DNA from: a virus
Taxonomy: Duplodnaviria > Caudoviricetes
Length of the DNA stretch: 57,337 nucleotides
Strand: one strand, 5' to 3'
IMG/VR virus record: IMGVR_UViG_3300042402_000779
Span: 1-57,337 of that record
The notes under the pieces: generated by a model
Seen by the model: only the letters and a program-made list of their open reading frames with translations
What the model was told of the DNA's origin: nothing
The model's database searches: none
Program-made: the position numbers and the translations under genes
Part shown: positions 6,361 to 57,337 of the stretch, piece after piece
How positions within the stretch are numbered: the first letter of the stretch is position 1
How the letters are laid out: every line of letters starts with the position of its first letter

Positions 6361-7054
6361 AAGGTATTTTACATCAATCACCGAAATGGCCATAAATGCT
6401 TATAATAAGTGTGATGACCAACGGTTGAAAAATAAAATCTATAATAGGTTTATACACTACCCATTTGATAAGTTAGTTGAGAATGTAATTCACACATATA
6501 AAACTTATTATTTTGATGTACCTTATGAGGATGTTAAACAAAACGTAGTTGCATTCCTAAACGAAAAGATTCATAAGTTTAAGGGTGAAAATGGTAGAGC
6601 GTTTTCTTACTTTACGGTTATCGCAAGAAACTATCTTTTTAATGAGAACAATCAGAACTACGCTCAGTTCAAAGCTCGTGAAGACGTTGACTCAATTGAC
6701 ACATCACGAAACATTGTGAATGAAGTTTGGGAAACACAACATTCAGAAATGCAGTCTGACTTTATGGACTATTATGTCAGATACATGGACCATAACATTT
6801 ACAGCTTATTTGAAAAAGACCGAGATAGGAAAATTGCAGATGCTCTTACTGAATTATTCAGAACTCGAAAAAACCTATACTCATATAATAAAAAGGCTCT
6901 TTATATACTTATAAGAGAACGAACCGGTGTACAAACTCAATATATCACAAAGGTAGTTGGTAAGATGAAATCCATATATGTAATACTATATACCGACTAT
7001 AGCCGTGGTGATAATATTAGTATAACACACCGAATTGGAGAATTTAATGGATAG
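6329..7054 (+). CDS. putative late-transcription sigma factor (T4 gp55-like)
   Basis: RAFSYFTVIARNY resembles the sigma region-2 'FAYFT' motif of gp55-like proteins; size and position before the structural genes fit. Confidence 0.65.
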   Translation: MARRAGKPKSKRYFTSITEMAINAYNKCDDQRLKNKIYNRFIHYPFDKLVENVIHTYKTYYFDVPYEDVKQNVVAFLNEKIHKFKGENGRAFSYFTVIARNYLFNENNQNYAQFKAREDVDSIDTSRNIVNEVWETQHSEMQSDFMDYYVRYMDHNIYSLFEKDRDRKIADALTELFRTRKNLYSYNKKALYILIRERTGVQTQYITKVVGKMKSIYVILYTDYSRGDNISITHRIGEFNG

Positions 7055-7412
7055 ACACGAAGAAATATTTAAAGGTAAAACGTTTTCTGATTTAATGAAA
7101 GATGTTTATGAGAATCAGAAAAAGAAAGACCGACAAATAAAATTATTGATAGCACAACTTGAGCCGCTCGTTAGGAATCTTAACGATGCGGCTGTTGTCG
7201 TTCCACTCATTAAGGAATATCTCGATGTATCAGTTAAGAATGACGATGCTCTTATAAAGTTAGCCGCTATCGTACAACGTATGATGAAAGACAGCGCTGT
7301 TGCTGAAACTGGTGGATTTATATTATCTGATGAAGAGAAAAAGCAGTTAATGGCTGCTATGGATGAAGTTGAAAAAGACTTACCTAAACAATCAGACGAG
7401 GATGATGAATGA
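7047..7412 (+). CDS. hypothetical helical protein
   Basis: The ORF track starts at TTG 7035; the in-frame ATG at 7047 is preceded by GGAG (7037-7040) and is the likelier start. Confidence 0.6.
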   Translation: MDRHEEIFKGKTFSDLMKDVYENQKKKDRQIKLLIAQLEPLVRNLNDAAVVVPLIKEYLDVSVKNDDALIKLAAIVQRMMKDSAVAETGGFILSDEEKKQLMAAMDEVEKDLPKQSDEDDE

Positions 7413-8374
7413 AATTAGGTACAGTACAAAAAATAAACCTAAACGATAAAGACCCGAATTTAGTAAATTCAATTACAGTATCAAGTAATTCAGGTGGAGT
7501 TGGTAGTAACATAGAGTGCTATCCGCTATCTATGAATTTTAGACAAATTCCTGTAATCGGTGAACAAGTATACATAGTTGTAGGTTCAGACGCAGCATCA
7601 TCAGCTGTTGCTAGAAAAGCCAAAAACTATTATCTATCTCCCGTATCTTTACAATTCAATGTTAATCATAATTCATTACCCAAATTAAATTACCTACAAC
7701 CTGGTACATCTGCTGGGGCAGCTATAGTACAATCTTCAGCTGGTATTCCTGCTAGAGCATCAACCGACTCTTCAGTTAACTTTGGTAATGGATTCGTTGA
7801 ATCTCCAAACGTATCTCAACTCCAAGGGTTTCTTGGTGATGTTATTTTAGAAGGTCGATTTGGTCAATCTATAAGATTTGGGTACACTCCAAGGAATGTA
7901 AAAAAAACTGACATATTGGTAGATGGTGCTACCATTGAACCAACGTGGACATCGACAACTCCTGAATCACCAATTACAATATTTAGAAATGGAGCTGGTA
8001 TCAGTCGTGGATATAATAAGTTTGTAGTAGAAGATATCAACAAAGACGATACTTCGATATGGATGACATCTGCTCAAACAGTACCTCTTAAAACTCAAAC
8101 GTTACCAATAACGACAACTCCTATTTCTTTTTACAATAAACCACAATTGTTAATTAACTCTGGTCAAGTTGTTATAAACTCCAAAACTGATAGTGTAATT
8201 TTATCATCTAATAAAGATATAGTTTTAGCTACGCCTGCTAATGCTACAACAATAGATAAAATAATTGAAGCAATAGAAATATTGGCTCAAGGATTATATC
8301 CGACAGCAGTAGGTCCGACAGGCCCACATCCAAGGATTGCCGAAATACTTTTAAAAATAAAACAAGGTTTATAA
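7409..8374 (+). CDS. putative baseplate hub/spike protein (gp5/gpV-like)
   Basis: OB-fold-like N-terminus (PVIGEQVYIV), GDVILEGRFGQSIRF, beta-rich C-terminal part; lies upstream of the gp25/gp6-like genes. Confidence 0.55.
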   Translation: MKLGTVQKINLNDKDPNLVNSITVSSNSGGVGSNIECYPLSMNFRQIPVIGEQVYIVVGSDAASSAVARKAKNYYLSPVSLQFNVNHNSLPKLNYLQPGTSAGAAIVQSSAGIPARASTDSSVNFGNGFVESPNVSQLQGFLGDVILEGRFGQSIRFGYTPRNVKKTDILVDGATIEPTWTSTTPESPITIFRNGAGISRGYNKFVVEDINKDDTSIWMTSAQTVPLKTQTLPITTTPISFYNKPQLLINSGQVVINSKTDSVILSSNKDIVLATPANATTIDKIIEAIEILAQGLYPTAVGPTGPHPRIAEILLKIKQGL

Positions 8375-8375
8375 T

Positions 8376-8561
8376 ATGGCTCTTAATAAAACAGAACTCA
8401 AAAATGAAATAGCTACAAAACTTGAAGAGTTGAGAAAAAGACCTGGTGGTGGTTCTACTGAAGACTTTGCTAGGATTATAAGTGATGCGATTGATACTTA
8501 TATTAAAAAAGCTCGTATCAATAATAAAAATGGTGATGATACCGAAAACAAAATAAACTAA
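8376..8561 (+). CDS. small hypothetical protein in baseplate cluster
   Basis: 61-aa ORF that fills the gap exactly; AAGG upstream. Confidence 0.6.
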   Translation: MALNKTELKNEIATKLEELRKRPGGGSTEDFARIISDAIDTYIKKARINNKNGDDTENKIN

Positions 8562-8569
8562 AGTAAAGA

Positions 8570-9060: not shown

Positions 9061-9494
9061 TGGCTACTCGTAGAGAATGGAAAATAAATCCACTTGATTT
9101 AAAAAGGAACACTGCTATTGGTGTTATGCTACCATTGGGTGGTGAACCTTTGTTTAAACTATCATATACCACGGAAGAACAATCCATCTCTAACTTAAAA
9201 AATTTGTTGTTAACTCGAAAGGGTGAACGCCCATTTCAACCATTCTTTGGTACTGATGTTTATTCATTATTATTTGAACAACTTACCGATGACCTTGAAG
9301 AGTCTTTATCAAATTCATTAACAGCTGATATAAAGTTTTGGTTACCATATATTATAATCAATTCGATTTTAATAAATGTAAATGAAGACACTAATAGAGT
9401 AAACATATCATTGAATTACAAAGTAACCGAAACTGGTGCTAATAGAAACATAACAATGAATATATCATCACAAGGAAGTATGACATTAGTTTAA
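9060..9494 (+). CDS. baseplate wedge subunit, T4 gp25-like
   Basis: NLKNLLLTRKGERPFQPFFGT...LLFE, the gp25/GPW signature. Confidence 0.88.
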   Translation: MATRREWKINPLDLKRNTAIGVMLPLGGEPLFKLSYTTEEQSISNLKNLLLTRKGERPFQPFFGTDVYSLLFEQLTDDLEESLSNSLTADIKFWLPYIIINSILINVNEDTNRVNISLNYKVTETGANRNITMNISSQGSMTLV

Positions 9495-9503
9495 GGAATA
9501 TAA

Positions 9504-11423: not shown

Positions 11424-11433
11424 GAGGTAAGAA

Positions 11434-18130: not shown

Positions 18131-18137
18131 TATTTAT
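18131..18137 (+). promoter_or_regulatory. candidate late promoter TATTTAT
   Basis: Intergenic, 23 nt before ATG 18161. Confidence 0.6.
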
Positions 18138-18160
18138 ATTATATAAATTAGGAAAACAAC

Positions 18161-18832: not shown

Positions 18833-18848
18833 TTAAGGAAGGAATAAA

Positions 18849-20060: not shown

Positions 20061-20636
20061 ATGGGAATGGTTTTCAAAAAAATATTTCGAGAGGGTATTC
20101 AACAACGACCCTTTGAAGCTCATAAACGATATGAGGTGACTGATGTTAATTATTCGTCATCATTCGAAATATCAATATTAAGAGCCATTTCTGATGGTGG
20201 TGTTTTATTAGATGTATCAAGTTCGGTGGCCGGAGTAAACGTACCCGACCCACGAATTATTAGTGGTTCTGGTGCTGCAAGTGATGAGCTAAATCATATA
20301 CCACAGCAGATTAATTGGTATTCACTTAACTCTACATTCTTTAAAAGAAGACGTGATATTACTTTATACGAAACTGCATCAATCATGTCCATACCACAAA
20401 ATAAATTTGGGGATGGTATAAAGCCGGAATCGGTTACTGTAACGGATAATAGCCATTATCCATCATCTTCTATTTCACTATCCGATATTAAGGTTGATGA
20501 AGAATATGGAATTCTAATATCAAATGAATTAACAAGTTCGGCGTATGTTAATACTCGTGATGTTCTCGTTTATTTAGATTTCAATGGTGATTTAAATGAC
20601 AGGTCTAACTATTCAAGTGAAAATAGGATTATCTAA
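20061..20636 (+). CDS. tail structural protein (N-terminal part of an apparently split paralog of ORF 18849)
   Basis: SIPQNKFGDGIKPESV resembles AINRARLKDKLDPGNW in ORF 18849; ends in YLDFNGDLNDRS, like a LamG-domain start. Confidence 0.55.
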   Translation: MGMVFKKIFREGIQQRPFEAHKRYEVTDVNYSSSFEISILRAISDGGVLLDVSSSVAGVNVPDPRIISGSGAASDELNHIPQQINWYSLNSTFFKRRRDITLYETASIMSIPQNKFGDGIKPESVTVTDNSHYPSSSISLSDIKVDEEYGILISNELTSSAYVNTRDVLVYLDFNGDLNDRSNYSSENRII

Positions 20637-22060
20637 TGTCATATTCATTAAGAACAAACTATACAAACAACGTAACCAATTCTACATTAAGGGCGGATAC
20701 AAATCCATATGGGTCTGCTATTACAACCCGAGTAGTTACAGGAACACAAACAGGCGCATATCTATACAATGTAGCATATCTTCACCCTGACAGTGGTTAT
20801 GAGTTTACATCCGTTGGTGATATTTCTTTTGTCCTTGATGGTATGCCATATACAAATGGCTCTGGTGTTATCGGTGCTGTTTTAACAAATGGGTTAATAC
20901 TGATTCAAACAGTAAAGCTAAACCCCAACGTCATATATGGTTTAGTAATCAATGGAGCTGCTACAATAGCATCTGAACCAACTACATATAGTAGTACGAT
21001 TCCGGCTGGTGGAATAGCTTCAAATCCAAGCTTGGGTGTTGGTAATTTTTACAATTTTAACCAATACAACAATATCCAAATTAAACACAAACAAAATTTT
21101 AATATACTTAATAAAGTAGATAATTGGGCTGTTTCATTTTGGGCTAATATACCACTATCTCAATCATTGGCAGGTGTTGGAACTCAAACCATTTTACAAA
21201 AAAGAAACGTAGAAACTTATTTTGATTCGAATGGTATAGAACGAACTCAAAATAATAGTTCAGCTCAATACCCGTTTGATTTTTCACTTTATACGGAACA
21301 ACATCCAACCTTAGCGGGTCGAGTCTTTGTCAGAGCATCAGATGGTATATCTACTCTAAACATATCATCATCGACTGCTGTTAATGATGGCATGTTTCAC
21401 CACTACACTTTGAACAAAGTAGGAAATCAGTTATCACTATACATTGATGGTGTTAAACATACCAGTGGCTCATATTCGTTTGCTGAATTGGTTAGTAATG
21501 ATAGAGACATAATGATAGGTAGTGATACTTTGAGTCCCGATGGTTTGGGATTCTCTGGTTCAATAGCACAATTTAGAGTACATAGAAATGAATTATCATC
21601 AAGTGTAATATCATCATTGGCTGATAATTCTACAAGTGGTTCTGCTCTTCAACGAAAAGAAGTTGGATATGTTTTTTATAAACATGGTATGATTGTGGTA
21701 ACCGACCCGAGACCAAGGTATCAAAATATTTTTTTAGGTAATGGTGATTTTGATTATACAAACAAAGGGTTCGAATTAACTTACAAAGGTACAAAGCAAA
21801 TTGAAGAAGTATCAATTCTTTGTGAAATAAATCGTGATGAGTATAATGTATCATCAAACCCATCATTAAAATTAACATATGATGAAAATGAACCAAGACT
21901 AAAATCTATGGTAACTGGTTCCGACTTTAGACCATACATCACCCAAGTTGGATTATATAATGATTTTGGAGATTTGTTAGCAGTAGCTAAACTTGGAGCT
22001 CCATTAAAGAAACGACAAGATGTTGATGTTACAATCAATGTAAAATTTGATTTGGATTGA
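20636..22060 (+). CDS. LamG/concanavalin-like domain tail protein
   Basis: WAVSFW, FHHYT, LYIDGV, IMIG and FSGSIAQFRV (LamG-like), plus a C-terminal YITQVGLYN domain. Confidence 0.7.
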   Translation: MSYSLRTNYTNNVTNSTLRADTNPYGSAITTRVVTGTQTGAYLYNVAYLHPDSGYEFTSVGDISFVLDGMPYTNGSGVIGAVLTNGLILIQTVKLNPNVIYGLVINGAATIASEPTTYSSTIPAGGIASNPSLGVGNFYNFNQYNNIQIKHKQNFNILNKVDNWAVSFWANIPLSQSLAGVGTQTILQKRNVETYFDSNGIERTQNNSSAQYPFDFSLYTEQHPTLAGRVFVRASDGISTLNISSSTAVNDGMFHHYTLNKVGNQLSLYIDGVKHTSGSYSFAELVSNDRDIMIGSDTLSPDGLGFSGSIAQFRVHRNELSSSVISSLADNSTSGSALQRKEVGYVFYKHGMIVVTDPRPRYQNIFLGNGDFDYTNKGFELTYKGTKQIEEVSILCEINRDEYNVSSNPSLKLTYDENEPRLKSMVTGSDFRPYITQVGLYNDFGDLLAVAKLGAPLKKRQDVDVTINVKFDLD

Positions 22061-22112
22061 TTATGACACATTTTATACAAAGAACTTTCAACGCTGGTTA
22101 AAAATTATAGTT

Positions 22113-22532
22113 ATGGCAAAAGGAAATTGGAGTCATATTCAAAAGACCAAAGGACACAAATCCGGTCTTGAGGATAAGATAAACGAACAACTACGAATTG
22201 TAGGAATTGATGGACAATATGAGCAACATGAGATTCAATATATTGTCCCAGCATCAAACCACACTTACAAGCCGGATTTTAAATTACCAAATGGTATTTA
22301 CATAGAATCCAAGGGTTGGTTTTTACCTGAAGATAGAAAAAAACATTTGTTGATAAAAGAACAACATCCTGAATTGGATATTCGATTTGTATTACAATCA
22401 CCAAATGGTAAAATCTACAAGGGGTCTAAAACTACTTATGCACAATGGTGTGATAAATATGGATTCAAGTGGGCCAAGAAGGAAATCCCACAGGAGTGGT
22501 TAGATGAAAAACCAATTGAATCTTTTTTTTGA
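22113..22532 (+). CDS. T7 endonuclease I-like Holliday junction resolvase
   Basis: KSGLED, YKPDFKLPNGIYIESKG, HPELDIRFV, TTYAQWC; ATG 22113 is likelier than TTG 22047. Confidence 0.9.
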   Translation: MAKGNWSHIQKTKGHKSGLEDKINEQLRIVGIDGQYEQHEIQYIVPASNHTYKPDFKLPNGIYIESKGWFLPEDRKKHLLIKEQHPELDIRFVLQSPNGKIYKGSKTTYAQWCDKYGFKWAKKEIPQEWLDEKPIESFF

Positions 22533-22558
22533 TAATTCAAAATAATTTCGTATATTTA
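22528..22558 (+). promoter_or_regulatory. Bacteroidota-type promoter upstream of primase
   Basis: TTTG (22528-22531), 19-nt spacer, TATATTTA; shares TTTCGTATATTT with the clpP promoter. Confidence 0.6.
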
Positions 22559-22563
22559 ACCTA

Positions 22564-23496
22564 ATGGAAGATAGACTACTGGCTCTATTAGAACTCGTAT
22601 TAGGTAAATCGAAGAAAACTTCGGGTGACAATTATGCGTTCTATTCTCCGTTTGTAGACCACTACAAACCAAAGTTGGAAATTAATATACGAATTAATTC
22701 CAAGGGAGACAACCCATGGCATTGTTGGATTTCTGATGAAAAGGGTAAGACTATCAAATCCCTTTTTAAAAAGATTCGAGTATCAAAGCAAGTTTGGGAC
22801 GAGTACAATTACATATTCAGTAAGGTTAGTAGATATAGTATAACTGATAATGTTAACGACATTACTCACGTTGAATTACCACGAGAGTTTATACCCCTAT
22901 ATAAAAAACAAAATACAATACAATACAAACACGCTCTAAACTATGTACTTAATCGTGGTATAACCCCCGAACAAATTGTGAAGTACAACATAGGGTATTG
23001 TGAATCGGGAGAATATAATGAAAAGATTATTATACCATCTTATGACGAGAATGGTAAACTCAACTTCTTTGTTGGTAGGTCATTTTACGAAACCAAATTT
23101 AAACACAAGAATCCAAAGGTTTCAAAAGACATCGTTGGTTTTGATTTATTTGTCAACTGGAATATTCCATTGGTATTGTGTGAGGGTGCTTTTGATGCTA
23201 TTGCAATTCGTAGGAACGCCGTTCCGTTATTTGGTAAAACAATACCATCGAGTCTTGAAAAGAAAATCATAGACCACAAAGTAAGTAAAGTATACATATG
23301 TCTCGATTCGGATGCTCTGAAAAACGCAATTAAATTTGCTGAAAAATTCATGAACTATGGAATCGAAACTTATCTTGTGGATTTAGGTGAAGATGACCCA
23401 AACGAGATGGGTTATGAAAAAATTAACAAAGAAATTTATAATACAACTCCAATGAATCTTCAGAAACTAATGGAGTATAAATTATTTCGCGTATGA
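22564..23496 (+). CDS. DNA primase (DnaG/TOPRIM type)
   Basis: YVLNRGI, IGYC, IIIP, FVGR, LCEGAFDA, LDSDA, DPNE; the N-terminal Zn-binding region is degenerate. Confidence 0.85.
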   Translation: MEDRLLALLELVLGKSKKTSGDNYAFYSPFVDHYKPKLEINIRINSKGDNPWHCWISDEKGKTIKSLFKKIRVSKQVWDEYNYIFSKVSRYSITDNVNDITHVELPREFIPLYKKQNTIQYKHALNYVLNRGITPEQIVKYNIGYCESGEYNEKIIIPSYDENGKLNFFVGRSFYETKFKHKNPKVSKDIVGFDLFVNWNIPLVLCEGAFDAIAIRRNAVPLFGKTIPSSLEKKIIDHKVSKVYICLDSDALKNAIKFAEKFMNYGIETYLVDLGEDDPNEMGYEKINKEIYNTTPMNLQKLMEYKLFRV

Positions 23497-26663: not shown

Positions 26664-26681
26664 GAAAGTTGGAGTTAATTA

Positions 26682-34744: not shown

Positions 34745-34763
34745 TTCTTGAGGGAGACATATT

Positions 34764-35234: not shown

Positions 35235-35242
35235 GGAATCTA

Positions 35243-38379: not shown

Positions 38380-38396
38380 TTTAAAATAGGAATATT

Positions 38397-40946: not shown

Positions 40947-40979
40947 TTTGGTAGTTAAGTTTATTTTTTGTATATTTAT
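40947..40979 (+). promoter_or_regulatory. overlapping host-type and candidate late promoter upstream of portal
   Basis: TTTG (40947-40950), 20 nt, TATATTTA (40971-40978), overlapping TATTTAT (40973-40979). Confidence 0.55.
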
Positions 40980-41014
40980 AACTTGTAAGAGTATACAAAT
41001 TAGAGAAACACAAT

Positions 41015-42868
41015 ATGGCAGATAATTCAATATATGGTAGACTGAAAAAATTATTCAACACCCAAGTAGTCGTTAGACGAATTGGTAAGGATAAAGTTCA
41101 GACTGTCGATACTCAAAGACTCCAATCTCAAGGTAATATGAGACAAAGCTCGTATTATGACCGATTTGGTAGACTACATTCGTCTCGTAGAAACTGGGAA
41201 ACCTATAATCAACAATTCAATTACTATTCTAATAAATTGGAATTGTATACCGATTATGAATCTATGGACAAAGACTCAATCATCGCTTCGGTTCTTGATA
41301 TTTACTCCGATGAATGTACTTTAAAAAATGACATGGGTGATGTTTTACGAATCAAATCATCCGATGAGAATCTAAAGAAAGTTCTTCACAATTTATTTTA
41401 CGATGTTCTGAATATTGAATTCAACCTATGGGCTTGGATTCGTGGTATGAACAAGTATGGTGATTACTACTTACACCTTGACATTGAACCTGAAGTTGGT
41501 ATTGTAAACGTATCACCAATGTCTACATACGAAGTAGAACGTGTTGAAGGATTCAATCCTGACAATCCGTATGAAGTTAAGTTTAAATTAAGTTCAATGT
41601 CATCCGCTCCAAACTCATATAACATTATGGGTAAAGCTAGAGAGGGTGTTGAATTTGATTTCTATCAAGTAGCTCACTTCAGACTTATGGCTGACTCAAA
41701 CTTCTTACCATATGGTCGTTCTATGTTAGAGCCAGCTCGTAAGACTTGGAAACAATTAACTCTTATGGAAGATGCTATGATGATTCATCGTATCATGAGA
41801 GCTCCCGAGAAAAGAATCTTCAAAATTGACGTTGGTAATATCCCACCTGGTGAAGTTGACCAACACATGAGGAACATCATTGACCAAATGAAGAAAGTTC
41901 CATACATCGACCAGAATACCGGTGACTACAACCTTAAATTCAATATGCAGAATATGTTGGAAGACTATTATCTTCCTGTAAGAGGTGGTCAAAGTGGAAC
42001 TGAAATCGATTCGTTGAGTGGTATGGAGTTCGGTGGTATTGATGATATCGAATATTTAAAAAATAGAATGATGGCTGCTTTAAAAGTTCCTAAAGCATTC
42101 ATCGGATACGAAGAAGGTGTTGAAGGTAAAGCTACACTTGCTCAACAAGACATTAGATTTGCACGTACTGTTGAACGTATCCAAAAAATTGCTGTTTCTG
42201 AACTTACAAAGATTGCAATAGTTCACTTATATACTCAAGGTTACGAAGGTGCTGACCTTGTAAACTTTGAATTGGAGTTAACGACTCCATCTGTTATCTA
42301 CGAACAAGAGAAAGCCGCTCTTTGGACTGAAAAAACAAGTTTAGTTAGTTCAATGAAAGAGTTAAAAATGATTTCTCAAGAATGGATGTATAAAAACATC
42401 TTTAATATGTCAGATGATGAGTGGAAACTCGAACAAGCTAAAGTTATCAATGACTTAAAACTTGGTTTCAGACAAGAACAAATCGTAAATGAAGGTAATG
42501 ATCCTGTTAAAACTGGTGAATCCTTTGGTACACCACATGATTTGGCTGTAGTATCACAACAACCTGCTGAAGAAGAGGGTGGTTCACCGGAAGGTGGATT
42601 TGAAGGTGCTGGTAGACCAACTGAAGGTGGTACATATGGTACTGATGATGCTAATATGGGTCGTGACCCGTTGGGTAAAAAGACCGATGTTGGTACTGAT
42701 TCAGCATATCACACATTTAGAGGTTCGCCGAACACATTAGAGTCCTTAAAAAAGTCTATGAGTAAGGTTAAGACCAAAAAAATGATAATTGAATCGTTAA
42801 AAACTGAAGAAGAACCAAAAGAGTTTGATATGTTGGATGAATCTAACTTGTTAGACGATACGATTTGA
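41015..42868 (+). CDS. portal protein (T4 gp20-like)
   Basis: LMEDAMMIHRIMRAPEKRIFKIDVGN, EDYYLPVRG, GTEIDSL, ALKVP. Confidence 0.95.
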   Translation: MADNSIYGRLKKLFNTQVVVRRIGKDKVQTVDTQRLQSQGNMRQSSYYDRFGRLHSSRRNWETYNQQFNYYSNKLELYTDYESMDKDSIIASVLDIYSDECTLKNDMGDVLRIKSSDENLKKVLHNLFYDVLNIEFNLWAWIRGMNKYGDYYLHLDIEPEVGIVNVSPMSTYEVERVEGFNPDNPYEVKFKLSSMSSAPNSYNIMGKAREGVEFDFYQVAHFRLMADSNFLPYGRSMLEPARKTWKQLTLMEDAMMIHRIMRAPEKRIFKIDVGNIPPGEVDQHMRNIIDQMKKVPYIDQNTGDYNLKFNMQNMLEDYYLPVRGGQSGTEIDSLSGMEFGGIDDIEYLKNRMMAALKVPKAFIGYEEGVEGKATLAQQDIRFARTVERIQKIAVSELTKIAIVHLYTQGYEGADLVNFELELTTPSVIYEQEKAALWTEKTSLVSSMKELKMISQEWMYKNIFNMSDDEWKLEQAKVINDLKLGFRQEQIVNEGNDPVKTGESFGTPHDLAVVSQQPAEEEGGSPEGGFEGAGRPTEGGTYGTDDANMGRDPLGKKTDVGTDSAYHTFRGSPNTLESLKKSMSKVKTKKMIIESLKTEEEPKEFDMLDESNLLDDTI

Positions 42869-42915: not shown

Positions 42916-43764
42916 ATGACGAAACTTAAACATAGTAAATTTAAGAATACGGGTATCCTATTTGAATTACTCGTAAGACAAATCGCTTCAGACACATTAG
43001 CGGGTAAAGACTCTCTTGCCCTTGAAATTATTAAAAAACATTTCAAAAAAGGAAGCGAATTAAGTAAAGAATTGAAATTATATCAATCTCTGACAAAGGA
43101 AACCTTTGATTCACAATATAAAGCTCAAGAATTTGTAAATATTATTTTACAAGAACGTGGGTCGTTGACCGAGACTACTTTGAAGAGACAAAAATACAAC
43201 TTAATTAAATCCATCAAAGAATCTTTTGTGATGGAAGACTTTTTTAAGTATCGTGTATCAAACTATAAGCAATTGGCTTCTATATACAAAGTGTTTGAGT
43301 ACACACAATCGGTTTCACCAAAAGAATACGTTGATTGTAAAACGAATATCCTTGAAACCATCACTACAAAAGATGTAGAAATCATTTCAGAATCAGCAAC
43401 TACCAAAGAATACGCTGAACAACCTAAAGAGGTTCGTATGTTGGCTTACAAATTCTTGGTTGATTCGTTTAATTCAAAATATACAACACTTTCAGAATCT
43501 CAAAAAAAGGTACTTCGTAATTATATCAATAATGTCGATAATTCTAACAATTTGAGAAAGTTTGTGTTATCTGAAGTTAAAAAGTTAAAGTCCGAATTTG
43601 CTAAAGTAAAGGTTACTGATAAGGTTGCAAGTATTAAGGTAAATGAGACTGTTAATTTAATTGATAATATTTCAAATTCAAAGGTAATCAACGAAAATCA
43701 AATTTTATCGTTGTTAAGATACCATGAATTGTTACAAGAATTAAGGAGAGTATCTAATGTCTAA
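42916..43764 (+). CDS. head-cluster hypothetical protein
   Basis: Helical 282-aa ORF between portal and prohead protease. Confidence 0.65.
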   Translation: MTKLKHSKFKNTGILFELLVRQIASDTLAGKDSLALEIIKKHFKKGSELSKELKLYQSLTKETFDSQYKAQEFVNIILQERGSLTETTLKRQKYNLIKSIKESFVMEDFFKYRVSNYKQLASIYKVFEYTQSVSPKEYVDCKTNILETITTKDVEIISESATTKEYAEQPKEVRMLAYKFLVDSFNSKYTTLSESQKKVLRNYINNVDNSNNLRKFVLSEVKKLKSEFAKVKVTDKVASIKVNETVNLIDNISNSKVINENQILSLLRYHELLQELRRVSNV

Positions 43765-44261: not shown

Positions 44262-44405
44262 ATGTCTTGCGGATGTAACAAAAATAAAAATTTAAAGGAA
44301 GCTCTTGAAGTCGATGACCTTGAGCAAGTCCGTTATATAATCCGTAGAGAAATTGCAAGAATATTCTTTGATTTATATCGTAAAAGACAAGTTTGGGAGA
44401 AATAA
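44262..44405 (+). CDS. 47-aa small protein missed by the ORF track
   Basis: MSCGCNKNKNLKEALEVDDLEQVRYIIRREIARIFFDLYRKRQVWEK*; fills the gap exactly and its TAA overlaps the protease ATG (TAATG). Confidence 0.7.
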   Translation: MSCGCNKNKNLKEALEVDDLEQVRYIIRREIARIFFDLYRKRQVWEK

Positions 44406-45043
44406 TGAAACAATTATTAATAGATGTTAGTTTATTTGAGATTACACCTCAAATGTTGAAAGAATCACACGATAAAAGTGGTAGATTCATTGTAAGTGGT
44501 GTACTTCAGAGAGCTAATGCTAAAAACCAAAATGGTAGAGTCTATCCCAAAGAAATCCTTGAACGAGAACTCGAAAAATACAAGGGTAGAGAGATTAGAG
44601 AGAATAGAGCTTATGGCGAACTCGACCACCCTGAATCATCGGTAGTTGAATTGAAGAATACTTCACATATCATTCGTGATGTGTGGTGGAATGGTGATGA
44701 TGTTGTTGGTCAGGTGGAAATATTAAATACACCTGCTGGTAAAATCTTACAAGAACTGGTTAAGGCTGGTTGTACTGTTGGTATTTCATCAAGGGGTATG
44801 GGTTCTGTTAAACAAATCAAAGAAGATGGTACTGTTGCTGTTGAAAACGACTTCGAATTGATTTGTTGGGACTTTGTATCAAATCCATCAACTCAAGGTG
44901 CTTTTTTGAGACCTACAAATGAAGGTGTCATTAAAGAAAGTGTTCAAAGAAAACAAACTAATTATACTAAAGCTAATACCATCATGAGAGATATCATTTG
45001 TGAAGTTGGTGGTTATTGCGAATGTGATTTTGGAGTAAAATAA
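44405..45043 (+). CDS. prohead core protease (T4 gp21-like)
   Basis: NQNGRVYP, GELDHP, GISSRGMG, DFVSNPS; start at ATG 44405 with GGAG upstream. Confidence 0.93.
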   Translation: MKQLLIDVSLFEITPQMLKESHDKSGRFIVSGVLQRANAKNQNGRVYPKEILERELEKYKGREIRENRAYGELDHPESSVVELKNTSHIIRDVWWNGDDVVGQVEILNTPAGKILQELVKAGCTVGISSRGMGSVKQIKEDGTVAVENDFELICWDFVSNPSTQGAFLRPTNEGVIKESVQRKQTNYTKANTIMRDIICEVGGYCECDFGVK

Positions 45044-45044: not shown

Positions 45045-45893
45045 ATGAAAATGATGTCATTATTAAAAGAAGATGTTAGTAAATATACTAATGCTGGTAT
45101 TAGCAAATTTGCAGTAGCGATTGCTTCATTAACTACAACAAGACCTGATGCAGTTCAAAAATTCGTTGATACTAACGAGTTGAATATTGAAAAATTATAC
45201 CAATTTCTTAAAAAAAGTAAGCTAGATGGTAAAATGGATTTTGTAACTGCACTTGTAGGTAAACCTAATAATCCTATCCAAAGGAAAATGATTAAAATGT
45301 TTTCTGAATCAGTAAACGAAGAACAAGACCACGAAGTGAAAATGTCTCAAAACTCATTAGATTCAATTATCAAGTACGCTACTGAATTGAAGCAAAAAAT
45401 GGGTGAGATGGAAAAAGATATTCCTGCTTGGATTCAAGACCACATCACTAATGCTGAAAACTACATTTCACAGGCATCTTCAAACTACCATGAATATAGT
45501 GGTGTTAATGAAAACTCAATCAATGAAATGAACCCAGCCGTTAATAAACTTGTTCACAAACTTTTAAGTAAAGAATTGAATGGGTTACGAGTTGGTGGTG
45601 CTAATCACCAATACGCATTAATGCACATTTTGATTGGTGCTTTAAGAGACGCTAATTTCTCTGCAGCTATTAAGAATGTTCCAAAGATATTTCCTAAAGC
45701 TAAATACGAAGGTGACCCTATGGGTGAACAAGACCTTGAGGATATGTACGAATATGAAATCGGTCCAAAAATTGCTTCTATGGCAAAGTGGGATGGTAAG
45801 GATATCGTAGATGCTGTTGGGTTTTATGTATCAATGACAATTGGTAGACCGATGGGTCAGAAAGTTGAACAACTTGTTGAAGGAAAAAAATGA
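45045..45893 (+). CDS. putative head-internal modular protein
   Basis: MKMMSLLKE leader; three modules separated by ESVNEE and VNENSINE. Confidence 0.6.
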   Translation: MKMMSLLKEDVSKYTNAGISKFAVAIASLTTTRPDAVQKFVDTNELNIEKLYQFLKKSKLDGKMDFVTALVGKPNNPIQRKMIKMFSESVNEEQDHEVKMSQNSLDSIIKYATELKQKMGEMEKDIPAWIQDHITNAENYISQASSNYHEYSGVNENSINEMNPAVNKLVHKLLSKELNGLRVGGANHQYALMHILIGALRDANFSAAIKNVPKIFPKAKYEGDPMGEQDLEDMYEYEIGPKIASMAKWDGKDIVDAVGFYVSMTIGRPMGQKVEQLVEGKK

Positions 45894-48203: not shown

Positions 48204-48210
48204 TATTTAT
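48204..48210 (+). promoter_or_regulatory. candidate late promoter TATTTAT upstream of bS21
   Basis: Intergenic, abutting the hairpin at 48211. Confidence 0.55.
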
Positions 48211-48247
48211 ATACACCTATCAGTAACATGGTAGGTGTATTTTTTTT
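48211..48247 (+). terminator. intrinsic terminator/attenuator hairpin upstream of bS21
   Basis: ATACACCTATCA-GTAACA-TGGTAGGTGTAT (12-bp stem, one G:U) followed by T7. Confidence 0.75.
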
Positions 48248-48258
48248 AACAAGAATTT

Positions 48259-48519
48259 ATGAATAGAAAAAACGACAATTTTAAAAAGAAGAAAAAGGGC
48301 CGTAAGGATGATATGTTCATGTACGGAAACGCCCTTGGTGTGAAAGTAGTGGATGGTAACTTGGAAGCTGCCATTCGGTTATTAAAACGAACTGTTAAAG
48401 ATAGTGGTATGATGGATATCTTACGAGATAAGAAAGAATACACTAAACCAACAACACTTCGTAGAAAACAAAAAGAAGATGCTCAACGCAGAGAGTATAT
48501 TCGAAGAATAAACGAATAA
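48259..48519 (+). CDS. rpsU: phage-encoded ribosomal protein bS21
   Basis: VKVVDGNLEAAIRLLKR...G...LR....YTKPT..RR matches the bS21 pattern; position in the head cluster is typical of phage bS21 genes. Confidence 0.85.
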   Translation: MNRKNDNFKKKKKGRKDDMFMYGNALGVKVVDGNLEAAIRLLKRTVKDSGMMDILRDKKEYTKPTTLRRKQKEDAQRREYIRRINE

Positions 48520-48639: not shown

Positions 48640-48672
48640 TTATCCAAAAAGCTTAATTTAGGAGAAAAACAA

Positions 48673-49644: not shown

Positions 49645-49675
49645 TTTAAAACCAAAAGAAAAAAGGAAAAATAAG

Positions 49676-51310
49676 ATGAAAATCAATAACATTTTGAATG
49701 AATCTGCTGGTTTCAACAAAAGAATGACCGAAGAGACTAAAGGTATCGTAGCTAAATGGGCTAAGACCGGTCTTTTGGAAGGTATCAAGTCTGACTTCGA
49801 AAGAAGTGGCATGGCTACTTTGTTGGAAAACCAAGCAAAACAATTGGTATCTGAAGCTTCAAGCACAGGTACTTCTGCTAACTCTGAAGAATGGGCTGGT
49901 GTAGCTCTTCCTTTAGTAAGACGTATTTTCTCTGAAATCGCTGCTAAAGAATTCGTTAGTGTACAACCTATGAACTTACCATCAGGTCTTGTATTCTATT
50001 TGGATTTCAAATATGGTACAGGTCAACCTGGTTTCACTACCGGTTCTGGTAAAGATTCACAAGCTGACTCTGTATTCGGTATCACCGAAACTGGTTCTGC
50101 TGCTGTTGGTGGTCTTTATGGTGCTGGTCGTTTCGGTTACACTATCAACGAAGCTAGTGCACAACTGAATAAAGCTGCTAACTTGACTACTGCTGCTAAC
50201 TTTATCACTGGTTCTGTAACTGATGCTGATATTGATTACGATACAGCGTTTTCTCAATCAGTATTGGTTGGCGCAACTGGTGTCATCAAGGTACAATATT
50301 CAGCATCTCGTGACTTGACTGATGTTGACCTTGAAGGTGTACGTGCGTTCCAACTTTACTCAACTTCATCTGCTATTGTTAACTACCCACAATTCACTAA
50401 AGTGAATGCTCAAGGTTTGGTAACAACTATCGTTAAAGTTGCTGACCCATTATCAATCAATGGTGTTAAATACCAAAAACAACCGACTGACATCACTCGT
50501 GGTGACTTCGAACAAACCACTTCAGGTTTCGCTGCAAACCCTGAAACTGACCTTGGTATTCCTGAATTAAACGTTGAGCTTCGTTCAGTTCCTATCGTTG
50601 CTAAGACTCGTAAGTTGAAAGCACAATGGACTCCTGAATTTGCTCAAGACTTGAACGCTTACCACTCAATTGACGCTGAAGCTGAATTGACTTCAATGTT
50701 GTCTGAATATGTATCTCAAGAAATCGATTTCGAAATCTTGGATATGTTGATGCAGAACGCATTGACTACAGGTTACTGGTCAGCTAAAGTTGGTTACGAG
50801 TGGAATGGTTCAGGTTTCGCACAATCAGCTGCTAACTACACTGCTTACATTCAAGGTACTTGGTTCGCTACATTGGGTACTGTACTTCAGAGAGTTTCTA
50901 ACCAAATCCATGCTAAAACCATGAGAGGTGGAGCTAACTTTATGGTAGTATCTCCTGATGTTGCTACAATCCTTGAGTCTATCCCAGGATATGCTGCTAA
51001 TGGAACTGGTGCTGAAATGTCATTCGCTATGGGTGTATCACAAGTAGGTTCGTTCGCTAACCGCTACACTGTGTACAAAAACCCTTACATGACTACTAAC
51101 CAAATCTTGTTAGGTTTCAAAGGTGCTCAATTCTTGGAAACTGGTGCTGTATACGCTCCTTACATTCCATTAATCATGACTCCTTTGGTGTATGACCCGA
51201 AAAACTTCCAACCTCGTAAGGGTGTTATGACTCGTTACGCGAAGGAAATGATTCGTGGTGAGTTCTATGGTAAGGTATACGTTCATGGTCTTGAGACTTT
51301 GGGCGCCTAA
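49676..51310 (+). CDS. major capsid protein (T4 gp23-like)
   Basis: LLENQ, LPLVRR, VQPMNLPSGLVF, AKTRKLKAQWTPEFAQDLNAYH, YAPYIPL, GVMTRY. Confidence 0.96.
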   Translation: MKINNILNESAGFNKRMTEETKGIVAKWAKTGLLEGIKSDFERSGMATLLENQAKQLVSEASSTGTSANSEEWAGVALPLVRRIFSEIAAKEFVSVQPMNLPSGLVFYLDFKYGTGQPGFTTGSGKDSQADSVFGITETGSAAVGGLYGAGRFGYTINEASAQLNKAANLTTAANFITGSVTDADIDYDTAFSQSVLVGATGVIKVQYSASRDLTDVDLEGVRAFQLYSTSSAIVNYPQFTKVNAQGLVTTIVKVADPLSINGVKYQKQPTDITRGDFEQTTSGFAANPETDLGIPELNVELRSVPIVAKTRKLKAQWTPEFAQDLNAYHSIDAEAELTSMLSEYVSQEIDFEILDMLMQNALTTGYWSAKVGYEWNGSGFAQSAANYTAYIQGTWFATLGTVLQRVSNQIHAKTMRGGANFMVVSPDVATILESIPGYAANGTGAEMSFAMGVSQVGSFANRYTVYKNPYMTTNQILLGFKGAQFLETGAVYAPYIPLIMTPLVYDPKNFQPRKGVMTRYAKEMIRGEFYGKVYVHGLETLGA

Positions 51311-52111: not shown

Positions 52112-52148
52112 TTAGAGATAGTAATACAAATTATATGAGGAAAACATA

Positions 52149-55100: not shown

Positions 55101-55859
55101 GATACTCCATTCTCTATGTCATTGGGTGGAACGAATGCTGCTGATTTGTATTTAGTACCACAAAACGCAAATTCATCATCATATGTTATAAAGAATGTAT
55201 CTACAATATCAACCGGACAAACATTGACATACGATGCTACAATTAAAGATGTTCATGGAAAAACACGAACATACTCATCAAACACGATAACTATCGCAGA
55301 CCCCGTTGCTCTTGTTTATGCTTATGGTTGGAGTGGTGGTTCTGCCGCAAGTGAAGCTACGGCTATTGCATCTTTAGGTGATAATGGGGCTGATGGTATT
55401 GCTATTGATAGTGGTTCGGTAATTGCTATGTTCCAAAGTGGTTCGTTGGGTAGTACGTTTACACCATCATATATTGGTGGCGCTTGTACCCTATATAAGA
55501 GTTCATCATTGACAAACCTGTCAGATACATCTGCTACCGGATTGTCAACACTTGGATACTTGAACTTTAGTTCGACCTCACAGCGAGTTTTAATATTATT
55601 TGCTTCAGCTTCTAATTTAGGTGGTAAGCCGGCTTCTATGTATGATAGTGCTCCGCCTGACCCAACGGGAACTCCAAACGAATACTATGTATATGCTAAA
55701 GATGCTGCTATTCCTGGAACAATGGGTACTGGTATTTACTATTTTAACTTACAAACACCACATCAAGGTTACTCTCGTTGGGGAATGATTTTCGGTGAAG
55801 GTAAAAACAATAACAACACAAGATACTATTTGATGCCAGATTCGGCATCTGCACCATAA
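52149..55859 (+). CDS. virion surface protein with cadherin-like repeats
   Basis: IQE..SGSVVGTVSATDAE, LNENS..TDAEND..LDYE..TVQD and INENS..GSITATDSEGD motifs; N-terminal SGSFSGSFQG. Confidence 0.75.
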   Translation: MPDYSGSFSGSFQGTISGSLLGSGILSSSTQIDFTSIPNKPAQNQYITPFQSNQIRALTEFKQGSVLTPGTFPYFSASMQDRVVSVSQNVTTLSSSILTTVSNLSSSIASRMTAIELDVDVTGSDAQNLSFNSSTYALSISNGNSVDLSSLAGGGSGGSGLAITASYTGSVLSQNIRSIDFTGSGVSVTNVGNAITVLVTRADSVSNAATASYISPTFISASVAAAGFGGGSDAALSQSTNPLTTFDGNRVVSNTSLPAGIYNTNFGTSGSLANFIEKVFFPNSVPVITTTGFTIQEFEASGSVVGTVSATDAEAQSITFRTSSLYTANYFRISSAGQITLNTKSTSSMNTDSTPGSGSHPFLVEAVDTFNGVGSQTIYIRVNPNTAPVWRQTSTNGSIITSYTASLNENSAPGTKFTVYFTDAENDTITINASSIPSAFSATINPTNVVISQVTASLDYEATSSYSFTMTVQDQHYTSGDDTTSITSLPVLIQVTDNISPIVNNQTLTAINENSSNGTTVGSITATDSEGDTIVFSNFTLLSAYLNSVGTNVTSSLGGTSLYDPHADPFQCSSGGTVTRKNGVYLNSDVADRYVYLVTISDAYNTTTDTAEITIPIDADASSTIGSDTQTYYIVESAVSGADLTTNTNGYTAGSVTFSSAVSQMWKVNSVPAGYVRFTNGTTQYTGSTSLGLELANNISGSIYTSGSTLQIQITASETSFETTKQYRTHTLKVTPNLAYGVTFSTASYSSNWNTNGARPSNYLAVISFGEYQVGIGDTVNHSTFQLVSSSAGFSRLQSGDNYYIYANSNISAGTYTFSASIADSFGKIGSSSATFTVAQASTGSLTTNGTFYVIETARSGAFIYTSTNGRTGTQGDLGVTYSPQYNSAAVASFTSSNALVSVTTAGALSIGQNVSGSYTSGQTFTSTITFRDQYNNIGSGSITINVAPNSVPTASFTPIAANLTASISANTGLISASISDMETDTPFSMSLGGTNAADLYLVPQNANSSSYVIKNVSTISTGQTLTYDATIKDVHGKTRTYSSNTITIADPVALVYAYGWSGGSAASEATAIASLGDNGADGIAIDSGSVIAMFQSGSLGSTFTPSYIGGACTLYKSSSLTNLSDTSATGLSTLGYLNFSSTSQRVLILFASASNLGGKPASMYDSAPPDPTGTPNEYYVYAKDAAIPGTMGTGIYYFNLQTPHQGYSRWGMIFGEGKNNNNTRYYLMPDSASAP

Positions 55860-55873
55860 GGAGACAATATAGA

Positions 55874-56464
55874 ATGGCAACTACAGTAGGCGATATTTAT
55901 ATTAGAGGTGGGCTATCCGGTTCATTCACCGATATTAGTTATGTACAAGGTGGTTGGATTACTGTTGCGTCATCCTCTACCATGTACTCCCTATACCATG
56001 ACCGATTAAAAGATGGTCAAATTATATACATTCAGAATTCGGATTCATTATATAAGGTAACAAAGTATATTGCATTTGAAACCCCTGGATATGGTGGACT
56101 TATTGATTCTGCTTCGTTTACATCATTTACCTTTCCAGGTGGTGCTGTGGCTGGAACTATATCAAGTTCTGCTCAAATTGCATCTGATATAAGTGGTGCT
56201 TTTGTATCTTTATCATCATCAATTGCTTCAAGATTTGATACACTTGGTGGTGTTGGTGGTATATTTGCATTAACAGGTTCATTCTATTCAACAACAAACA
56301 ACATTCAAATAACAGGTTCACTGTCAGTATCAAGTGGGTCTTTCGAAGGATTTAAAGTTGACAATGTTGGTAGAACAATTATAGGTGATAGTTCAAACTT
56401 GAATTTACAACCAATTGAAGGTGGAATATTATATTCTTCATCATTGTTTTATTTAGGAATGTAA
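55874..56464 (+). CDS. Ser/Gly-rich virion protein
   Basis: SD TAAGGAG; composition and motifs shared with neighbouring fibre genes. Confidence 0.6.
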   Translation: MATTVGDIYIRGGLSGSFTDISYVQGGWITVASSSTMYSLYHDRLKDGQIIYIQNSDSLYKVTKYIAFETPGYGGLIDSASFTSFTFPGGAVAGTISSSAQIASDISGAFVSLSSSIASRFDTLGGVGGIFALTGSFYSTTNNIQITGSLSVSSGSFEGFKVDNVGRTIIGDSSNLNLQPIEGGILYSSSLFYLGM

Positions 56465-56471
56465 TATTTAT
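56465..56471 (+). promoter_or_regulatory. candidate late promoter TATTTAT
   Basis: Directly after the stop codon, upstream of ORF 56528. Confidence 0.55.
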
Positions 56472-56527
56472 TCTTGTATACAAAACACATATGTCAATTT
56501 TAATCGATTAAAATAGGAGAAATTTAA

Positions 56528-57337
56528 ATGGCAACATGGAAAAGAGTCATAGTATCAGGCGATAATGCTTCATTATTGAGCTTCGCTGGTACTGGTATTT
56601 TGTCTGGGTCTGGCGCTGTGACCGCCGTGAGTGACACGACAACAATTGATTTAACACTATCAAGTGGTACTATTAGTGGTGCTGTAGTATCCGGTTCAAT
56701 TGACCAAGGTCAGTTAGCTACTGCTGCTGTAATAACTGCTAAAATTGCCGATGGTGCTGTTACAAATGCTAAAATTGCATCGTCTTCAGTTGACCAAGGT
56801 CAATTGGCTGCTGGTGCTGTAATAAGTGCTAAAATTGCTGACAACGCTGTAGTAAGTTCTAAAATTGCTGCCGGTAACGTAGTTGCTGCTGCATTGGCTA
56901 CTGATTCTGTAGAGACTGCCAAAATTAAAGATTTAAACGTAACTACTGCTAAGATTGCTGACGCTGCTATTACGAATCTTAAAATCGCATCATCTTCAGT
57001 TCAAAACGGACACCTTGTAGCATCTACTGTTACTATCGGTTCTACTTCAGTAACCCTTGGTACAACGGCTACATCGCTTGCTGGTTTAATAAGTGTAGCT
57101 TCGGCTAACTTCGTTGGTAACTTAACAGGTTCTGCTTCAAATGCTACATCGGCTTCCTTTGCTACATTAGCAATGACCGCTAACTCGGCTACAAGTGCTA
57201 CAAGTGCTACATCGGCTTCTTACGCTAACTTGACAAACGTAAATGGTGATATCACTGTTACTGCTGCTGGTACTGCTACAATTGCTAACTCGGCTGTAAC
57301 TACTGCTAAAATTAACGATAGTGCTATCACGAGTGCT
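56528..57337 (+). CDS. fibre protein with 10-aa repeats, 3'-truncated by the window edge
   Basis: Not in the ORF track (no stop in window); SD TAGGAG, MATWKRVIVSG..., repeats of AVxxAKIADG type at about 56690-57010. Confidence 0.8.
   Translation, partial: MATWKRVIVSGDNASLLSFAGTGILSGSGAVTAVSDTTTIDLTLSSGTISGAVVSGSIDQGQLATAAVITAKIADGAVTNAKIASSSVDQGQLAAGAVISAKIADNAVVSSKIAAGNVVAAALATDSVETAKIKDLNVTTAKIADAAITNLKIASSSVQNGHLVASTVTIGSTSVTLGTTATSLAGLISVASANFVGNLTGSASNATSASFATLAMTANSATSATSATSASYANLTNVNGDITVTAAGTATIANSAVTTAKINDSAITSA

Follow-up and report, generated by a model that had tools for sequence, protein, structure and literature searches.

Does the ribosomal protein bS21 encoded by a freshwater T4-like myovirus turn the ribosomes of its host into readers of the Shine-Dalgarno (SD) sequences that stand before the phage's own late genes? 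The question is raised by IMG/VR record IMGVR_UViG_3300042402_000779, a 57-kb fragment that was analyzed over its whole length (positions 1 to 57,337, referred to here as the window), and near-identical DNA is present in many lake-water metagenomes. Its identity as a T4-like myovirus follows from Pfam and PHROG matches to gp23, gp20, gp21, a T4-type terminase, gp25 and gp6, and every gene lies on the plus strand. In Bacteroidia, Tyr54 of bS21 and the surrounding pocket hide the anti-SD of 16S rRNA, as described in the passages found of PMC7797042. The original prediction for this DNA was that most late structural genes are SD-led, that early and replication genes are not, and that a phage bS21 frees the anti-SD in a host lineage that normally ignores SDs. 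The difference between the gene classes is borne out below, and the switch exerted by phage bS21 is, tentatively, the best reading that we can offer of the sequence data.

We defined an SD core as AGGA, GGAG or GAGG starting at positions -16 to -7 and considered the 52 plus-strand genes with enough upstream sequence. At these positions 27 cores were found where 2.8 were expected, all 27 lying within -15 to -9, and 19 of the 52 genes were SD-led as compared to 4.6% of all positions (binomial p = 7e-13). All 15 motifs that had been predicted were recovered at their exact coordinates, with 5-10 nt between motif end and ATG, and a further four to six SD-led genes were added (7047, 7409, 20636, 38397, 44405 and 45890). 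The sites are as follows.

7037..7040 (+): SD core GGAG, ATG 7047, spacer 6
7398..7402 (+): SD core GAGGA, gene 7409
9492..9497 (+): SD TAAGGA, gp6-like baseplate gene 9504
11424..11428 (+): SD GAGGT, gene 11434
18149..18153 (+): SD TAGGA, gene 18161
18834..18843 (+): SD TAAGGAAGGA, gene 18849
20625..20628 (+): SD core AGGA, gene 20636 (LamG-domain virion protein)
26671..26674 (+): SD GGAG, gene 26682 (1467-aa protein)
31091..31095 (+): SD AAGGA, gene 31104
34750..34756 (+): SD GAGGGAG, gene 34764
35232..35237 (+): SD TAAGGA, gene 35243
38388..38391 (+): SD core AGGA, gene 38397
43742..43748 (+): SD TAAGGAG, gene 43757
44396..44399 (+): SD core GGAG, ATG 44405, prohead protease
45032..45035 (+): SD GGAG, gene 45045
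45881..45884 (+): SD core AGGA, gene 45890
48659..48664 (+): SD TAGGAG, gene 48673, between the bS21 and capsid genes
49663..49667 (+): SD AAGGA, major capsid gene 49676
52137..52141 (+): SD GAGGA, gene 52149
55857..55863 (+): SD TAAGGAG, gene 55874
56514..56519 (+): SD TAGGAG, tail-fibre gene 56528

Duplex energies with the anti-SD, whose calculation the original prediction had proposed, were lower at real starts than at internal ATGs, with dG of -5 or below at 22 of 53 real starts and at 21% of 1264 internal ATGs (Mann-Whitney p = 0.006). The motifs of the window thus show the properties by which an SD is canonically recognized, namely complementarity to the 3' tail of 16S rRNA, a spacing of 5-10 nt and enrichment over background, and the SD sites are real and positioned. 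For the prohead protease, the true start is probably the ATG at 44405, behind the GGAG at 44396. Its orthologue is likewise SD-led in G001, an IMG/VR contig of 186.6 kb that is 98% complete, syntenic with the window and encodes a bS21 96% identical to that of the window.

The gene classes differ as had been claimed. None of the 12 genes in the non-structural modules (242-7054 and 22047-26663) is SD-led, as compared to 19 of the 40 elsewhere (Fisher p = 0.002), and all 11 early starts singled out beforehand lack AGGA, GGAG or GAGG beginning at -16 to -7. For one of these, 22113, only the lack of an SD stands; as a gene start it has to be given up, being an internal ATG of an open reading frame (ORF) whose first start is the TTG at 22047, which is SD-less too. 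The exceptions noted among the late genes, terminase (39372) and portal (41015), are indeed SD-less. The regions concerned are the following.

51..7054 (+): early-type module with phosphoesterase, kinase-like ATPase, RNA ligase, UvdE, ClpP-like protease and HD hydrolase
22047..26663 (+): second non-structural module with endonuclease I-like protein, primase and fused SbcCD-like nuclease, SD-less
39372..42868 (+): terminase and portal genes, late yet SD-less

The same division is seen at the scale of a nearly complete genome. In G001, 48 of 232 genes are SD-led (background 5.6%), and these divide into 38 of 89 late-module and 10 of 141 early-module genes (p = 2e-10). When only annotated genes are counted, SDs precede 11 of 18 virion and lysis genes and 2 of 20 genes of DNA and nucleotide metabolism. 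The SD-led group includes tail sheath, tube, head-tail adaptor, endolysins, GroEL/GroES and the capsid protein, while DnaB, UvsX, SSB, clamp, clamp loader, the large ribonucleotide reductase subunit and thymidylate synthase are SD-less. The annotation of tail sheath and tube in G001 also supports membership among the T4-like myoviruses. In its GroEL and GroES region (L011; G001 95503-98769), where both genes are SD-led, an SD-led HNH endonuclease gene lies between them.

The late genes are also distinguished by a promoter motif. TATTTAT is present in 19 plus-strand copies in the window, of which 13 lie just upstream of late-module genes and none within 70 nt of any early-module start.

18131..18137 (+): TATTTAT late-type promoter motif
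48204..48210 (+): another copy of this motif, at the head of the bS21 transcription unit
8570, 26655, 34085, 34738, 38373, 40973, 42881, 48558, 51377, 52105 and 56465 (+, starts): further TATTTAT copies

In G001, no 7-mer is more enriched ahead of SD-led genes than TATTTAT, which precedes 18 of these 48 and 11 of the other 184 genes, usually at -31 to -23. The late motif of T4 is TATAAATA, to which the likeness of TATTTAT is one of analogy only. As a predictor of SDs gene by gene, TATTTAT was tried in the window and rejected (5 of 20 against 5 of 28, p = 0.72); it is a mark of transcription units rather than of single genes. Late units mix SD-led and SD-less genes, and genes inside operons that have no promoter motif of their own are SD-led as well. 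In some cases TATTTAT lies only 10-13 nt before the ATG (window 8570-8583; G001 genes 27911, 53913, 107001 and 157110), and such late-module mRNAs may be leaderless and therefore unable to carry an SD. Among the early genes of G001, at least six small ones have a near-identical leader that ends in TCTTTACTCTGTAATCA directly at the ATG (e.g., 68019, 86606, 104313, 160682 and 161445) and others have a TATATTTG element just 4-6 nt ahead of the ATG, which suggests that these early mRNAs are near-leaderless.

The phage bS21 that the original prediction relied upon is encoded in the head-gene block (48259..48519, plus strand; 86 aa). It matches PF01165 with 47.3 bits (cut-off 27; E = 1.7e-12) over residues 28-79, as well as PHROG 21469, ribosomal protein S21. 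The protein has a basic N-terminal extension of 23 residues, and in the columns of Tyr54-Ile55 of the Bacteroidia it has Arg77-Arg78, with Tyr80 three residues further on. Three MAFFT modes aligned the C-terminal helix without gaps and placed Arg77-Arg78 at Tyr54-Ile55, and the Pfam coordinates and a KP-anchored register agree. An AlphaFold2 (AF2) model with a mean predicted local distance difference test (pLDDT) score of 80 shows the two-helix bS21 fold (helices 35-58 and 64-85), in which helix 64-85 is unbroken and modeled at a pLDDT above 90. The best structural matches of this model are mitochondrial and plastid bS21 at weak scores (Z 2.8-4.2), and a sequence search finds bacterial bS21 chains. 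As no Bacteroidia chain is among the 12 listed by the fold search, nor listed by the sequence search at E <= 0.01, the register rests on the alignment and the predicted helix.

In a bS21 of the Bacteroidia type, which sequesters the anti-SD, A1534 is stacked upon by the Tyr (or His) of position 54, where the window protein has Arg77, with Tyr80 one helix turn further on; such a bS21 also has a contact through Ile55 and a weakly basic C-terminal helix, where the window protein has Arg78. The C-terminal tail of the window protein is, moreover, richer in Arg and Lys than that of the bS21 of a Flavobacterium metagenome-assembled genome (MAG). In the 49 bS21 sequences of the clade (48 related loci and the window), the Tyr54 column holds Arg in 41, Tyr in two and Phe in one, an aromatic residue is found at +3 from this column in 31, and a basic N-terminal extension of about 15-30 residues is kept in most. 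As far as alignments can tell, equivalence of this aromatic residue with Tyr54 is not supported. When the window bS21 was searched by tblastn against the phage collection, no matches at E <= 1e-3 were obtained, which reflects a miss in sensitivity, because the cultured phage Mel-JY01 has an annotated RpsU. A word-based protein search returned only four close relatives, and a protein atlas search returned only viral bS21 clusters, with no clue to the host.

The bS21 gene stands in a transcription unit with a conserved head, in which the following element comes before the gene.

48211..48250 (+): hairpin and T-run directly behind TATTTAT (terminator scan), then an SD-less A/T-rich leader to 48258

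TATTTAT upstream of bS21 is invariant in all 22 aligned loci, with the hairpin and T-run directly behind it, and 9 of the 12 hairpin pairs show compensatory changes across these loci. The hairpin has the look of a terminator that would stop transcripts arriving from upstream; it overlaps the late promoter and would isolate the bS21 transcription unit. No SD was found in the leader of the window gene, and neither does it have the extended SD of an autoregulated Bacteroidia-type bS21; across the clade, 5 of 49 distinct bS21 genes have an SD of their own, and no gene for a bS21 with the N-terminal extension is among these. Judged by its promoter and leader, bS21 is a late gene translated without an SD, as would fit a protein that is needed before the ribosomes become SD-competent. 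RNA contigs from four lake metatranscriptome libraries cover parts of 38000-57337, including 48146-48463, although it should be noted that such contigs can neither rank genes nor prove transcription.

To compare relatives, we used two capsid-protein scans of IMG/VR, which yielded 157 distinct loci. The presence of bS21 was judged in 110 of these, where a locus was called bS21-negative if at least 5 kb upstream contained no bS21, and 34 loci were excluded because their upstream sequence was too short. In the 75 bS21-positive loci, 567 of 1308 genes are SD-led (43%), as compared to 39 of 591 (7%) in the 35 bS21-negative loci. The capsid gene itself is SD-led in 48 of the 50 distinct loci that have bS21 and in 3 of the 32 classed as bS21-negative. 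The leaders of bS21-less relatives, including the cultured Flavobacterium phage vB_FspM_immuto (immuto), are G-poor and SD-free.

The host is likely a member of the Bacteroidia, as far as sequence affiliations can tell. The sister clade of the window infects Flavobacterium. Of 12 MAG contigs with related capsid genes, six are labelled Flavobacteriia, Flavobacterium, Bacteroidetes, Bacteroidales or Ignavibacteriaceae and none is cyanobacterial. The closest MAG capsid gene (72%) belongs to a Flavobacterium MAG (G007) that also holds three contigs with phage-type bS21 (C196, C197 and C207), one of which adjoins a capsid gene fragment 72% identical to that of the window. The host-type bS21 of this MAG (64 aa, Tyr54-Ile55, long SD upstream) agrees with the form described for Flavobacteriales in the passages found of PMC9976891 and PMC13000457. 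The non-SD starts show a -1/-2 T and an A-rich context, as in immuto. Chen et al. 2022, in the parts of the paper at hand (PMC9723584), assigned bS21-encoding myoviruses to Bacteroidetes by one spacer of a clustered regularly interspaced short palindromic repeat (CRISPR) array and by gene affiliations. A further hint at a Bacteroidia host is given by promoters of the form TTTG-N17-22-TAnnTTTG, which precede 11 G001 genes (background 0.45%) and two window genes.

2357..2364 (+): TAnnTTTG element before the UvdE gene, with TTG 20 nt upstream, behind a terminator-like hairpin
4587..4594 (+): TAnnTTTG element before the ClpP-like gene, with TTTG 20 nt upstream

As proof of such a host these promoters were rejected, as the arrangement is also similar to the -35/-10 pair of sigma-70 promoters with a spacing of 17 nt, and none is found in immuto.

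How might these observations be joined? The window belongs to a large clade of aquatic T4-like myoviruses in which translation starts are of two kinds. Genes of the early and replication classes start without an SD, from a leader that is A/T-rich or from a promoter that abuts the ATG, while late genes (virion genes in the window, and lysis and chaperonin genes as well in G001) lie in TATTTAT-headed units in which about half of the genes have an SD of 4-7 nt. We infer a host among the Bacteroidia, with ribosomes in which the anti-SD is masked. As infection enters its late phase, phage bS21 would displace host bS21 on 30S subunits, and with the phage protein in place the pocket would release the 16S tail and unmask the anti-SD. 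Short SDs would then become usable, and the late mRNAs of the phage would be favored over the SD-less mRNAs of the host. The passages found of PMC13000457 report that the anti-SD is freed when the pocket is mutated or bS21 is lost, that on replete ribosomes an SD has to be stronger than about -13 kcal/mol in order to compete, and that in Flavobacterium johnsoniae the pocket of replete ribosomes is opened only by very strong SDs; according to a preprint, Cellulophaga phages lack the SD feature. A switch by phage bS21 is coherent with this published ribosome work and with the changed pocket residues. The more specific claim, that phage bS21 is a natural pocket-breaking variant that makes SD readers of the SD-blind ribosomes of Bacteroidia and thereby puts the SD-led virion mRNAs first, is one that we put forward with somewhat more reserve.

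Several observations weigh against a switch by phage bS21 and need to be considered when judging it. The window bS21 has residues of the non-Bacteroidia type, and since Arg in the Tyr54 column is shared by the bS21 of SD-using bacteria and of non-Bacteroidia Bacteroidota, the latter having Arg-Arg across the Tyr54 and Ile55 columns, this Arg could merely reflect a host that uses SDs or lies outside the Bacteroidia. Loss of the tyrosine alone is, furthermore, no full explanation, as SDs still lead many genes in three loci where column 54 of bS21 is occupied by Tyr or Phe (L039, 56%; L083, 36%; L092, 67%). Chen et al. 2022 equate the aromatic residue with Tyr54 and conclude that the anti-SD stays blocked, according to the passages found (PMC9723584). 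The association of bS21 with SD use is also less telling than the numbers of loci imply: a capsid tree of 89 rows made with FastTree has only two changes in the state of bS21, so that the co-occurrence is not independent statistical support, and with only two independent pairs no sign test for co-evolution is possible. Two clades that differ in their hosts may be all that the co-occurrence reflects. It also has exceptions in both directions. One bS21-positive locus (L082) has SDs on 1 of 20 genes, and three loci with no bS21 near the capsid gene (L094, L096 and L100) are 21-33% SD-led, the capsid gene included. The latter have a G+C of 0.40-0.53 and are neighbors of L095, a 157-kb contig without bS21 in which 0 of 23 genes are SD-led. 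L082 belongs, together with L191, to a 62.9-kb contig (G003) that, on the capsid tree, diverges at the base of the bS21-positive subclade which includes the window; it encodes a short bS21 of host-like type, which lacks the extension and has an acidic C-terminal end, and its internal SD-like words show no avoidance, with an observed-to-expected ratio (O/E) of 1.03. As to the host, Mel-JY01, a cultured bS21-positive member of the clade, is recorded in GenBank as a Microcystis phage (host Microcystis elabens), its SD-led genes (68 of 237) are spread fairly evenly over the genome, and the TAnnTTTG promoter has no positive control as a host marker, as immuto shows no such site.

The strongest rival explanation draws on much of this, and we regard it as unlikely, though to be taken seriously: the host would be a bacterium outside the Bacteroidia, such as a cyanobacterium, that reads SDs natively, SD strength would scale with the demand for late proteins, and bS21 would have another job, such as keeping ribosomes supplied or active. 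The recorded host of Mel-JY01 and the Arg in the Tyr54 column, as in non-Bacteroidia bS21, speak for this, and a single host shift would predict that bS21 and SD use change jointly about twice on the tree, as they do. The overall share of SD-led genes in G001 (21%) is the same as in cyanophage P-SSM2 (21%; 66 of 312 genes, background 9.2%).

SD-like words inside genes also bear on this alternative. Relative to a synonymous-codon shuffle, these words stand at 0.64 in the window, 0.68 in G001 and 1.08 in immuto. GGAGG was counted 0 times in the window, where 32.6 were expected, and 16 times in G001 (111.5 expected); for AGGAG the counts are 10 (38.8 expected) and 71 (153.8 expected), and the reverse complement CTCCT is not depleted, so that the depletion concerns the sense strand only. 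SD 4-mers are no outliers among the depleted words, GATC and CTAG being far stronger, and only the 5-mers GGAGG and AGGAG stand out. This shows that the phage mRNAs evolve as though they meet SD-reading ribosomes, which does not distinguish a switch from a host that reads SDs natively. The depletion is equal in the early (0.70) and late (0.67) modules and the same as in T4 (0.70), by which internal avoidance as a late-specific signal was ruled out; depletion of this kind throughout the genome is what a natively SD-reading host would give and thus counts against the switch. In the coding sequences of G001 (L007-L016), GATC was observed 12 times, as compared to about 456 expected from the synonymous shuffle, and CTAG, GACGG, CCTTC, CTTAG and CGACG are also strongly avoided; together with the three Mom-like DNA-modification proteins that G001 encodes, this would suggest restriction avoidance combined with DNA modification.

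What is harder to reconcile with native SD reading is the early class. In G001 the early-module genes are unenriched in SDs relative to background, whereas T4 has SDs in every 20-kb bin; given the even distribution of SDs across the T4 genome, an early class free of SDs is not the norm there. The closest MAG-binned relatives lie in Flavobacterium and other Bacteroidota bins and not in cyanobacterial ones, and both the Flavobacterium-infecting sister clade and the assignment to Bacteroidetes by Chen et al. 2022 (PMC9723584, passages found) argue for the same kind of host. For Mel-JY01, our literature search found no publication by which its host test could be judged.

A second alternative, which we consider improbable, keeps the Bacteroidia host and has the anti-SD freed by another route: host bS21 would be lost or degraded, for example by the ClpP-like protease of the phage, or bS21-free ribosomes would accumulate after host shut-off, and phage bS21 would, for instance, restore general initiation. 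Ribosomes without bS21 do read SDs, according to the passages found of PMC9976891 and PMC13000457, and McNutt et al. speculate, in those of PMC9976891, on a phage protease aimed at host bS21. The ClpP-like gene of the early module (4629-5264) encodes a candidate for this protease, and the three SD-led loci without a nearby bS21 would be explained. The gene is present in G001, Mel-JY01 and G002 and absent from immuto and G052; since its distribution mirrors the division between the clades just as that of bS21 does, it offers no greater independence than bS21, and in G002 it coexists with SD-less genes near the capsid gene. Against this alternative also stands the fact that 75 of the 110 judged loci have bS21 in the head block and that SD use follows bS21, and the changed pocket residues of phage bS21 would be left unexplained. 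The last alternative, that the purine motifs are not read by the anti-SD at all and are nuclease processing sites, binding sites of another factor or part of the late promoter, is very improbable: the cores are indeed short (4-7 nt) and late leaders share TATTTAT at about -25 to -30 and an A at -1, but the spacing is a strict, SD-like 5-10 nt with complementarity to the 16S tail, GGAGG and AGGAG are depleted in genes on the sense strand alone, and operon-internal genes without the promoter motif are SD-led too.

Genes identified in the window outside the non-structural modules are the following, given by their starts (Pfam/PHROG, unless only a domain or length is given).

9060 (+): gp25-like baseplate protein
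9504 (+): gp6-like baseplate protein
20636 (+): LamG-domain virion protein
26682 (+): 1467-aa protein
39372 (+): T4-type large terminase
41015 (+): gp20 portal
44393 or 44405 (+): gp21-type prohead protease
49676..51310 (+): gp23-type major capsid protein, the marker used for finding relatives
51410 (+): PhoH
56528 (+): tail fibre

Within the early-type module, a calcineurin-like phosphoesterase, a kinase-like P-loop ATPase and a T4 Rnl1-type RNA ligase form a cassette (242-2315) that looks like an RNA (tRNA) repair set of the type that counters host anticodon nucleases. In the second non-structural module, one ORF of 1056 aa (23493-26663) joins an SbcD-like metallophosphoesterase to an SbcC/SMC-like ATPase.

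The bS21 of phages, on record since 2019-2022, has no demonstrated function, and work on F. johnsoniae has shown that the availability of the anti-SD depends on the status of bS21. The window and its clade join these two lines of work and provide a testable prediction, namely that phage bS21 switches on short SDs. Our literature search, with the supplements of the cited papers outside its scope, found no paper linking phage bS21 to SD-led late genes. If the switch by phage bS21 is true, a widespread viral gene would gain a function and ribosome specialization imposed by a virus would have a clear case: the virus would re-specify host initiation through the exchange of a ribosomal protein, which would explain why bS21 is the ribosomal protein most frequently encoded by phages. 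If the host reads SDs natively, the finding shrinks to an ordinary phage with an unusually SD-free early class.

Of the known systems, T4 shares with the window the set of gp23, gp20, gp21, gp25 and gp6 and an A/T-rich late promoter motif. It differs in that its early genes are SD-led no less than its late ones (137 of 254 genes in all, and 41-65% in every 20-kb bin), and it is not known to encode a ribosomal protein. Immuto (MW353176) is likewise T4-like, with a syntenic head module, a capsid protein 54% identical and a similar G+C; it differs in having no bS21, SD cores before only 6 of 218 genes, G-poor leaders and no avoidance of SD-like words inside genes (O/E 1.9, or 1.08 relative to the synonymous-codon shuffle). 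Mel-JY01 (PP395634) has a capsid protein 58.5% identical, RpsU in the head block and SDs before 21 of 36 head-region genes, while its bS21 is short, has neither the N-terminal extension nor the aromatic residue, and is encoded by a gene with its own SD.

The bS21-encoding freshwater myoviruses of Chen et al. 2022 (ISME Commun, PMC9723584) are, as described in the passages found, a close published parallel in setting: they are likewise T4-like and from lakes, their bS21 lies in a block with terminase, portal, protease and capsid (39372 to 51310 in the window) and is linked to late expression, Clp protease and chaperones are encoded, and the idea of bS21 replacement is shared. Their bS21 is, however, on the reverse strand, while that of the window is on the same strand as its neighbors, and where they place the aromatic residue at Tyr54, our alignments place Arg there and the aromatic residue three residues later. 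The term SD occurs three times in that paper, and the passages found contain no analysis of SD sites in phage genes. For the bS21 of Pelagibacter phage HTVC008M (Mizuno 2019, cited in PMC9976891) and the bS21 paralogues of Francisella (PMC9578407), a variant bS21 alters, or is proposed to alter, the choice of mRNA; as presented in the passages found, these cases involve neither a host lineage that hides its anti-SD nor a temporal split of SDs within one viral genome. The autoregulation of rpsU in F. johnsoniae (PMC7797042, PMC9976891, PMC13000457 and PMC13000453, in the parts found) follows the same rule as is suggested here, in that the pocket-forming bS21 decides whether SDs are read. In F. 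johnsoniae, ribosomes without bS21 read a single host gene, whose SD is very strong, whereas here many short phage SDs would be read by ribosomes with a viral variant of bS21.

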